A DNA stretch of 61,706 bases from a virus (Duplodnaviria; Caudoviricetes): positions 1 through 61,706 of IMG/VR virus record IMGVR_UViG_3300025141_013347; one strand, 5' to 3'. Positions 18,425 through 19,128 of this stretch are shown here, piece after piece. The position numbers and the translations under genes are program-made. Each line of letters begins with the position of its first letter. Position 1 is the first letter of the stretch. Under the pieces are notes generated by a model that had not been told where the DNA came from, did no database searches, and saw only the letters and a program-made list of their open reading frames with translations.

Positions 18425-18790
18425 ATGAAAATCACCAAGTCACACCTCAGAAGAATCATTCGGGAGGCTATGCAGCCACTTATGGACCCTCTTTTTAACA
18501 TGCGGGAGATGTGTAAAGAATTTACGCTGCTGGAAGATCATCTCAATCAGCCCGATATGCAATGTCAAGATTGCATTAATAAACATTTGATGAAGTGTGA
18601 AGCGTTAGCCGAAGAAGCCGTATCACTCGATGATAAAGGCCGATATCCGTTTATCGAGATAATACCGAGTACTATTAGGTCATGGCATGAGTCTATTTTG
18701 GGTGGCGGACCATTGGAGAGTCTCGCTCCGAAAGTTCGAAAGCTGCGCAAAGAACTAACCCCACTTGTAGTGGATCGATTTGAAACATGA
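18425..18790 (+). CDS. MKITKRQLRRII-tag family protein with LLEDHL..CxxCxxKH domain
   Basis: MKITKSHLRRIIREA; possible metal-binding His/Cys. Confidence 0.8.
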   Translation: MKITKSHLRRIIREAMQPLMDPLFNMREMCKEFTLLEDHLNQPDMQCQDCINKHLMKCEALAEEAVSLDDKGRYPFIEIIPSTIRSWHESILGGGPLESLAPKVRKLRKELTPLVVDRFET

Positions 18791-19128
18791 AAATTACAAA
18801 ACGACAACTCAGAAAAATCATCCAGGAAGAGGCTAAAAAATCCGTGCCTTTCGGTAGCGGGATGGAACAGGCTGATTTAGATCCCGAGGAGAAGGAGCTT
18901 ATCGGTCACACGTGACTGACCCATGCCAAGCTGAAGTCTTCAGCTTTACAGGAGTCCTATGGAATTCAGGGAGATAAGGTAGGGAAGGTACTCTGGCACT
19001 CGCTAAGAAAGGATGGAACGATAAATAGGTATGACATTAGGTTTGGAAAGAAAGTGCTTAGAAACGTCCCTAGTGGGCTAGTGGAGTCAATTAAAGAGCT
19101 AGCACATGAACATGAAGAAAGAGATTAA
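18787..19128 (+). CDS. tag-family protein with in-frame TGA (probable selenoprotein, Sec43)
   Basis: MKITKRQLRKIIQEE...GHT-TGA(18913)-LTHAK, then 70 more open codons to TAA overlapping the next ATG; SECIS-like hairpin 12 nt after the TGA. Confidence 0.7.
18928..18946 (+). promoter_or_regulatory. bacterial SECIS-like hairpin
   Basis: AAGCTGA-AGTCT-TCAGCTT: perfect 7-bp stem, GU in the apical loop, loop 19 nt downstream of the TGA. Confidence 0.65.

Follow-up and report, generated by a model that had tools for sequence, protein, structure and literature searches.

How is a UGA codon read when it interrupts an otherwise continuous phage gene and is followed, a few nucleotides downstream, by a small hairpin? 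This question is raised by a gene of a 61.7-kb IMG/VR virus record with an estimated completeness of 35%. In what follows, the window is this whole stretch of DNA (61,706 nt), which carries six ordinary tRNAs and has a G+C content of about 43%. A previous sequence-only reading had described the interrupted gene and proposed that its UGA encodes selenocysteine (Sec). Our analysis confirmed that the observation is real and supported the Sec interpretation, as detailed below.

The gene and its in-frame TGA

The gene occupies positions 18787..19128 of the + strand and comprises 113 codons, with a single in-frame UGA at codon 43 and full-length homologues in 113 DNA copies. It starts with an ATG at 18787 and its N-terminal part reads MKITKRQLRKIIQEEAKKSVPFGSGMEQADLDPEEKELIGHT, after which comes the TGA (18913..18915, +). 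This is the proposed Sec codon, in the motif H-T-U-L-T-H, and it is aligned with the Cys of a second type of homologue (Cys-type, see below). The 70 sense codons on its 3' side (18916..19125, +) make up the main part of a small beta-barrel domain according to the alignments and AlphaFold models, and they end at a TAA (19126-19128) that shares its final A (19128) with the next ATG. We could thus reproduce the coordinates reported earlier, i.e., an ORF of a tag family starting at 18787, a TGA at codon 43 in the context GHT-*-LTH, and 70 further codons. The reported lack of a restart also held: the ORF list of the window has no ORF of at least 30 aa with an ATG, GTG or TTG start in the same frame between the TGA at 18913 and the TAA at 19126.

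A spacer of 12 nt (18916..18927, +) separates the UGA from a SECIS-like hairpin (18928..18946, +) delimited by folding and covariation, where the stem pairs 18928-18935 with 18939-18946 around the apical loop GUC (18936-18938). Its sequence is AAGCTGA-AGTCT-TCAGCTT, exactly as noted from the letters alone, and can be drawn either with 7 bp and the loop AGUCU or with 8 bp closing the GUC loop. The contigs of four marine metagenome runs have zero variants at positions 18913-18915 and 18928-18946, whereas the flanking third-codon positions do vary. The absence of variants at the TGA in these contigs, together with the presence of TGA in 113/113 copies, excludes a sequencing error, a check that the sequence-only reading had recommended.

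The TGA column across relatives

A search with the read-through protein resulted in 53 candidates and 28 relatives at E <= 0.01. All nine database proteins that we aligned have W at column 43 (9/9); the codons given below are those found in DNA. L007, the only IMG/VR relative from the first scan (45% identical), has TGA at the column and a hairpin with a compensatory change. Scanning JGI metagenomes, we identified 45 loci, of which 44 were kept. The remaining one, L052, is not a member of the family but a spurious match (30% identity, E 2e-4, no motif, in-frame stops) and was dropped before the counts. In the window, L007, and the 44 JGI loci, the codon is TGA in 46/46 cases, with neither TAA or TAG nor any sense codon among them. 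A search of 1.84 billion representatives with a profile gave 215 matches and led to two further subfamilies, whose loci (38 and 28) were fetched from IMG/VR and have TGA in 66/66 cases; one more divergent copy, L060, also has TGA. Overall, the column of these Sec-type genes is TGA in 113/113 DNA copies, never TAA or TAG, across three subfamilies of marine phage contigs that are 34-77% identical or more distant. At the column, the scans of IMG/VR and JGI revealed no sense codon, even though patterns with TGG were included, and we saw no Cys variant within the TGA subfamilies. For the statistics on the hairpin, the 113 TGA copies were reduced to 84 distinct sequences.

The gene is often split in database listings, where many matches stop at profile position 42 or begin only at 44. 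The proteins P0003-P0010, P0019, P0031 and others either carry Trp in the UGA column or are listed as two separate halves. Since every subfamily read as DNA has TGA, the W of the databases is most likely an artefact, probably a TGA translated by code-4 gene callers on short contigs; this attribution is based on the subfamilies read as DNA rather than on the source ENA contigs. The sequence-only reading had stated that Trp in the homologues would refute its proposal. This concern is largely lifted for the W of the 9/9 database proteins, which is most likely TGA judging from the subfamilies read as DNA, but it stands for one genuine TGG copy (L137).

This copy, the sole TGG that we found, is a single locus from a scan of one genome per prokaryote species, on a phage-like contig binned in the metagenome-assembled genome (MAG) G007. 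Positions 3112-3114 are a genuine TGG (Trp) at the column. The locus keeps a perfect hairpin (GGCUGAG-GGA-CUCAGCC), the gene looks intact, and the other invariant residues are kept. The contig is G+C-rich and has a coverage of about 5x according to its title. The MAG holding it has selB (303 bits), the link between MAG and phage being one of binning only. As TGG is found in a gene that looks intact, Trp may be tolerated at column 43, and as it is accompanied by the hairpin, readthrough with Trp stays a live rival to Sec.

The subfamilies differ in what precedes the UGA. In subfamily A8 (L101-L128), the UGA is codon 12 (MDKYNKSVQHQ-UGA-FHHATWG), leaving an upstream part of only 11 codons without the MKITK tag described below. 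The contigs of this subfamily are mostly 5-70 kb long, the hairpin loop is often GGUCU, and the carriers are perhaps a different kind of phage.

Conservation of the hairpin

We found a hairpin of at least 6 bp, located 11-14 nt after the UGA, in 82 of the 84 distinct TGA copies; the other two have imperfect stems. The spacer in these 82 hairpins is usually 12 nt (46 copies) or 13 nt (22), and less often 11 nt (11) or 14 nt (3). As a background, a hairpin of at least 6 bp follows 167 of the 2517 TGA triplets of the window at that distance (6.6%). Among the 31 split-ORF TGA codons of the window, i.e., those between two long open stretches, one has such a hairpin, TGA-43 alone. The hairpin of the window is more than a chance occurrence.

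The pairing is kept across sequences that have diverged on both sides of the stem. Within the window's own subfamily (37 distinct sequences), 97.6% of the cells are paired against 75.0% when shuffled (0/500 reach the observed value), and 6 of the 8 pairs change on both sides. The covariation is 0.617 vs 0.224, with slid controls at 0.173 or below, and RNAalifold independently predicted 7 of the 8 pairs of the same helix. With all 84 distinct sequences, 95.7% of the cells are paired against 62.8% when shuffled (0/500 reach it), the covariation amounts to 0.850 vs 0.219 (0/500), and slid controls do not exceed 0.314; changes on both sides are seen at 7 of the 8 pairs, a single position having up to six pair types. 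Between subfamilies, the stem encodes different amino acids (KLKSSAL, KVQDESL, KRKDSAL, TWGSPK), with the pairing retained. The hairpin is conserved as an RNA structure.

In some copies, the loop is GGUCU, as in the E. coli fdhF element. For a systematic comparison, we used the bSECIS consensus model of Zhang and Gladyshev, as it is quoted in the legend of Fig. 2 of PMC13188914. In the model, the apical loop has 3-9 nt and the upper stem 4-16 bp, one or both of the first two loop nucleotides are G (mostly G[G/U]), the distance from UGA to loop is 16-37 nt, and the minimum free energy (MFE) is <= -7.5 kcal/mol. In our family, the loops have 3-5 nt and the stems 6-9 bp in 82/84 copies (8 bp and a 3-nt loop in the window). 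The loop opens with G in 74/74 ungapped copies, followed by G in 50 and by U in 24, and the remaining 10 have AGUU; with these included, G[G/U] is scored in 84/84 copies. The distance from UGA to loop is around 19-22 nt, and 20 nt in the window (18916-18935). When the 45 nt after the UGA are folded, the MFE is <= -7.5 kcal/mol in 78/84 copies, with a median of -10.7; the six others are weaker than this limit, with values from -4.0 to -6.9 kcal/mol. The window copy has an MFE of -8.5 kcal/mol (36-nt stretch).

Homologues with cysteine

Among the 34 profile matches spanning the column, 23 have W and 11 have Cys, the latter in HxCxxH. Alignment of the Sec-type and Cys-type profiles by hhalign gave a probability of 99.5 and an E-value of 2.8e-23 over 99 columns. 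It places LIGHT-W(TGA)-LTH on LLGHA-C-ANH, with Cys and TGA in exactly the same column. All eight Cys-type DNA copies (8/8), which include L056-L059 and L061 (IMG/VR) and the cultured cyanophages P-HM1 and S-RIM2, encode this Cys by TGT. The expected alternation of Cys and TGA is thus seen as TGA in 113/113 Sec-type copies vs TGT in 8/8 Cys-type copies, in register in the profile alignment. The hairpin, which was expected in the TGA homologues, follows the same division: it is absent from 8/8 Cys-type copies (0/8, vs 82/84 distinct TGA copies). The T4-like HxCxxH domain that the sequence-only reading had brought up is real, as 269 GenBank phage records, all of cyanophages or marine viruses, match the Cys form.

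Across the Sec and Cys forms, the invariant positions are the His two residues before Sec/Cys, a Gly, a His, another Gly, and the C-terminal His; the His three residues after Sec/Cys is nearly invariant. In a tree of 37 domain sequences, in which database 'W' rows were assumed to be TGA, the TGA and Cys labels part with one change, with weak support (40/65; 1-4 changes over bootstraps). The Sec/Cys 'alternation' therefore rests on few events, since the tree needs as little as one weakly supported switch.

The Cys-type domain also occurs duplicated or embedded in larger proteins (L061, 2001-2498; P0171; L129, 934-2241; L130, 1285-3201). The long cyanophage Cys-type proteins, annotated as 'possible cytitidyltransferase' or 'hypothetical protein', have another residue in place of the second His of HxCxxH (HSCATK, HICAKL).

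Predicted fold and N-terminal tag

The two AlphaFold models (pLDDT 69.5 and 84.1) have an N-terminal helix, which is the tag, a disordered linker, and a small barrel of five strands, with residue 43 in the first long strand. They suggest a small SH3-like barrel. The conserved site consists of H41-x-U43-x-x-H46 plus the invariant H71, H107, and H109. Foldseek searches of the PDB with the two models gave nothing at E <= 0.001. The best VIA-align score was Z 5.1 (PDB), and every match was to a generic barrel (SH3, KOW, Tudor, PsaE or FeoA-like). Because these PDB matches are weak and generic, the fold gives no function, nor does it hint at a redox or metal role. The Sec form has no match in Pfam, PHROG or PDB, and the tag-bearing neighbours have none in Pfam or PHROGs. 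The ESM Atlas returned viral hypothetical clusters only. The DNA of the region matched none of the GenBank phages, and tblastn of the Sec-type proteins P0044 and P0122 found no match in cultured phages. Judging from residue conservation, the Sec/Cys and four or five His may form a metal or redox site.

The first 45 nt of the gene (18787..18831, +) encode the N-terminal tag MKITKRQLRKIIQEE. This tag, with the consensus MKITKxQLRRIIxE, heads 15 + strand ORFs of the window: 11 that are otherwise unrelated, in an array at 17623-23229, and the others at 2580, 60785, 61289, and 61553. In the contigs of the four metagenome runs, the depth is around 800-3260 over 18785-18835 vs around 20-60 in the adjacent sequence, and loose ends flank the interval on either side. 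This jump in depth over the tag indicates that the 45-nt tag is a module common to very many genes and phages. Three of the five related records searched, the larger relatives G002-G004, encode a T4-type prohead protease (PF03420); it was not found in G000 and G001, both incomplete. By analogy with the internal proteins of T4, the tag may serve as a signal for targeting to the capsid or as a propeptide, with cleavage after I-x-E.

We made a few other observations on tags and neighbouring genes. A second N-terminal tag family, M..L(F/L)ENWR.(F/H)L.E, heads several neighbouring ORFs of L007 (59-514, 4376-4999, 4996-5928) and is also found inside the Cys-type protein P0153. The window encodes a full-length DnaJ-like chaperone at 6390-7412 (phrog_14336, E 4e-95; around 38-41% identical to proteins annotated as chaperone DnaJ). 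The ORF at 16847-17056 is translated into an unusual series of M, T, I, and V residues (MAVDMVIMMTMTIMATTTTMIIMV...) and overlaps the end of the ORF at 16657-16980 in another frame; its translation probably reflects a purine/ATG-rich DNA repeat.

Genetic code and selenocysteine machinery

TGA is used as a stop throughout these genomes. It ends 37 of the 114 ORFs of the window, including neighbouring tag genes with ATGA overlaps, and 148 of the 416 ORFs of the complete 284-kb relative G004; many members of the family themselves terminate in TGA. We considered a recoding of TGA to Trp, either genome-wide (code 4) or restricted to lytic genes, and rejected it: TGA is an ordinary stop, 1/31 split-ORF TGAs combines coding continuity with a hairpin, and no suppressor tRNA was found. 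In G004, 18 of the 271 split-ORF TGA codons have some hairpin, and by eye only the family gene at 273419 (minus strand) reads as coding on both sides.

No suppressor tRNA or tRNA-Sec scored above the cut-off in the window, G001-G006, and the loci scanned, and the sub-threshold matches to tRNA-Sec are tRNA-Leu, Ser, Lys, Met, Arg, and Thr. Neither selB nor selD turned up in the seven phage records searched, one of which is a complete genome. The sequence-only reading had suggested looking for the Sec genes in the phage or its host; on the phage side, the search covered selB, selD, and tRNA-Sec and found none of them in the seven records. For Sec insertion, the phage would thus have to rely on the Sec system of its host. 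The complete relative G004 also has a tmRNA (L131 630-993, around 231.9-232.3 kb), with the tag peptide ANDNVEYDYALAA given by ARAGORN, which adjoins a tRNA cluster.

How the UGA may be decoded

We think it likely that the gene encodes a phage selenoprotein that depends on the SelB of the host. In a Sec-competent host, the hairpin 12 nt 3' of UGA-43 would act as a bacterial-type SECIS. Host SelB carrying Sec-tRNA(Sec) would bind it, and the ribosome would insert selenocysteine at UGA-43 instead of terminating. The product would have 113 residues, i.e., the tag MKITKRQLRKIIQEE, a linker, and the small SH3-like barrel with its HxUxxH site. The His/Sec site could confer a metal or redox role and the tag could bring the protein into the capsid; without SelB, translation would yield a stub of 42 residues. 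Cyanophage hosts are thought to lack Sec decoding, and the relatives in cyanophages have Cys at the Sec position and are without the hairpin. The Sec reading draws support from a UGA that is conserved together with its hairpin, from the covariation and bSECIS fit of this hairpin, from the alternation of Sec and Cys at one column, and from the fact that the hairpin accompanies the UGA. Counting against it are the TGG of L137, the phage records in which selB and selD were not found, the lack of a Cys variant within the TGA subfamilies, the small number of Sec/Cys switches, the six weak hairpins, and a fold that hints at neither a redox nor a metal function. One may speculate further that marine T4-like phages carry a widespread, unannotated family of selenoproteins, which would hijack host SelB via a minimal in-ORF SECIS, hold Sec in a His-rich site, and be packaged in the capsid and injected with the DNA, so that fitness and host range would be tied to host selenium and Sec decoding. 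We regard this larger picture as tentative and would not yet expect it to hold in full.

The most serious rival to Sec insertion is a programmed readthrough of the UGA, in which the hairpin slows or remodels the ribosome and a near-cognate tRNA, most likely tRNA-Trp, decodes the codon in a fixed proportion of the ribosomes, resulting in a 42-residue product and a full-length protein with Trp-43. L137 suits it well, having a natural TGG together with the hairpin and all other invariant residues, and so do the lack of Sec machinery (tRNA-Sec, selB, selD) in the phage records and the precedent of Q-beta A1, where UGA is read by tRNA-Trp. The base after the UGA is most often C (57/84), and UGA-C is the weakest termination context in E. 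coli, whereas UGA-U is a strong terminator. Yet this base is variable (C 57, U 14, A 11, and G 2 of 84), and since no single leaky context is conserved, a simple leaky readthrough is unlikely. The distant homologues have Cys rather than Trp in an invariant HxCxxH, and an exchange between Trp and Cys at such a site is unlikely. Moreover, the element fits every constraint of the bSECIS model, TGG was found just once despite an explicit search, and among the readthrough signals of bacteria and phages that we are aware of, none consists of a hairpin at such a distance. Overall, we judge readthrough with Trp to be an unlikely explanation, though one to be taken seriously.

All readings other than Sec and Trp readthrough are improbable, even when taken together. 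One of them is that there are two genes, a tag peptide of 42 codons and a gene of 70 codons that restarts after the UGA, with the hairpin aiding their coupling. The codon after the UGA is indeed ATG in 11 of the 84 distinct copies, and gene callers often report the halves separately. In the other 73/84 copies, however, the first eight codons after the UGA have no ATG, GTG or TTG, and the next codon is CTG (43), CTA (12), TTT (9), TTC (5), CTT (2), GCG (1) or GCT (1). The stop is always UGA and in frame (113/113), the best conserved residues, H41 and H46, flank it, the Cys-type homologues are continuous across it, and in subfamily A8 the upstream part would have only 11 codons. We thus find two genes very improbable. 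A broken gene, a sequencing error or a code-4 genome can practically be dismissed: a single change from TGG to TGA would give this picture in one genome and database proteins do show W, but TGA is found in 113/113 independent copies without any variant in the contigs of the four runs, and it ends 37/114 ORFs of the window, including tag genes with ATGA overlaps.

Novelty and comparison with known systems

As far as our searches show, a phage selenoprotein of this kind is undescribed in the literature searched: we found no paper on one, and the exact phrase 'phage-encoded selenoprotein' was absent. In the parts of the texts that were accessible, the words phage, virus, and viral have 0 occurrences in a 2026 review (PMC13188914), as have phage and virus in the study of the GOS selenoproteome (PMC2398784), whose 'hypothetical protein GOS_A' and 'GOS_B' lie outside this comparison. 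PMC9402790, likewise in the part accessible, states that the metalloprotein and selenoprotein families examined have no or very few viral sequences, with the exception of RNR II, plastocyanin, and Cu-Zn SOD.

Insertion of Sec would make this a phage-specific protein family that employs the selenocysteine system of bacteria. Phage infection would be tied to the availability of selenium and to Sec decoding, a trait that is patchily distributed among marine bacteria, and this could help to assign hosts. The more than 100 natural copies would be a ready covariation series of a minimal SECIS. Gene callers split the gene or, probably under code 4, silently read the UGA as Trp, which would leave public databases wrong at the most important residue. 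If the UGA is instead read through with Trp, the hairpin would be a new kind of bacterial readthrough signal, which is also of interest.

Homologues of the family include the Cys forms of cyanomyoviruses, such as PHM1_163 of Prochlorococcus phage P-HM1, annotated as 'possible cytitidyltransferase' and T4-LIKE GC 534, and Np010709_176 of Synechococcus phage S-RIM2. Their domain is homologous (profile E-values from 1e-23 to 3e-5; PHROGs 22379, 11470, and 764) and shares the invariant His, Gly, and HxH positions with the Sec form. They differ from it in having TGT for UGA and no hairpin, and the domain is often part of much longer proteins or tandem duplicates. The tag recalls the internal proteins of T4, whose N-terminal capsid-targeting sequence is cut by the gp21 prohead protease. 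In both cases, a short tag ending in I-x-E is found on many unrelated small proteins encoded in tandem, and a prohead protease is present in relatives of our phage. However, the tag has no sequence similarity to that of T4, the protease was not found in the 35%-complete window, and cleavage and packaging are putative here.

Two other systems share part of the logic. The A1 protein of phage Q-beta is a readthrough protein in which UGA is read by tRNA-Trp, and is thus also the product of a phage gene with an in-frame UGA decoded by part of the ribosomes; it differs in that no conserved downstream hairpin is known to be needed and no Cys homologue is known, whereas the element described here is SECIS-like. 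The glutathione peroxidases of molluscum contagiosum and fowlpox viruses are selenoproteins of eukaryotic viruses and, as proposed here, virus-encoded and reliant on the Sec machinery of the host. They have a eukaryotic SECIS in the 3'-UTR and are captured host genes, in contrast to the bacterial-type in-ORF element and the phage-specific family of this study.

A close likeness is to bacterial genes with an in-ORF SECIS, such as E. coli fdhF, which have an in-frame UGA, a hairpin directly 3' of it in the coding sequence with a small G[G/U] loop, 16-37 nt from UGA to loop, an MFE mostly <= -7.5 kcal/mol, and Cys homologues. Unlike them, the carrier here is a phage, and the Sec machinery would come from its host. 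The family also stands apart from bacterial selenoproteins in that its Sec would lie in a His-rich HxUxxH rather than in a CxxU/UxxC thiol-redox motif. It was also not among the families that we encountered by name, as the Sec form is without a match in Pfam, PHROG, and PDB. To our knowledge, the pattern HxUxxH...H...HxH in an SH3-like barrel resembles no known selenoprotein motif. If Sec is inserted, the mechanism would be the ordinary bacterial one, and what would be new is the phage carrier, the protein family, and possibly its delivery by the virion.
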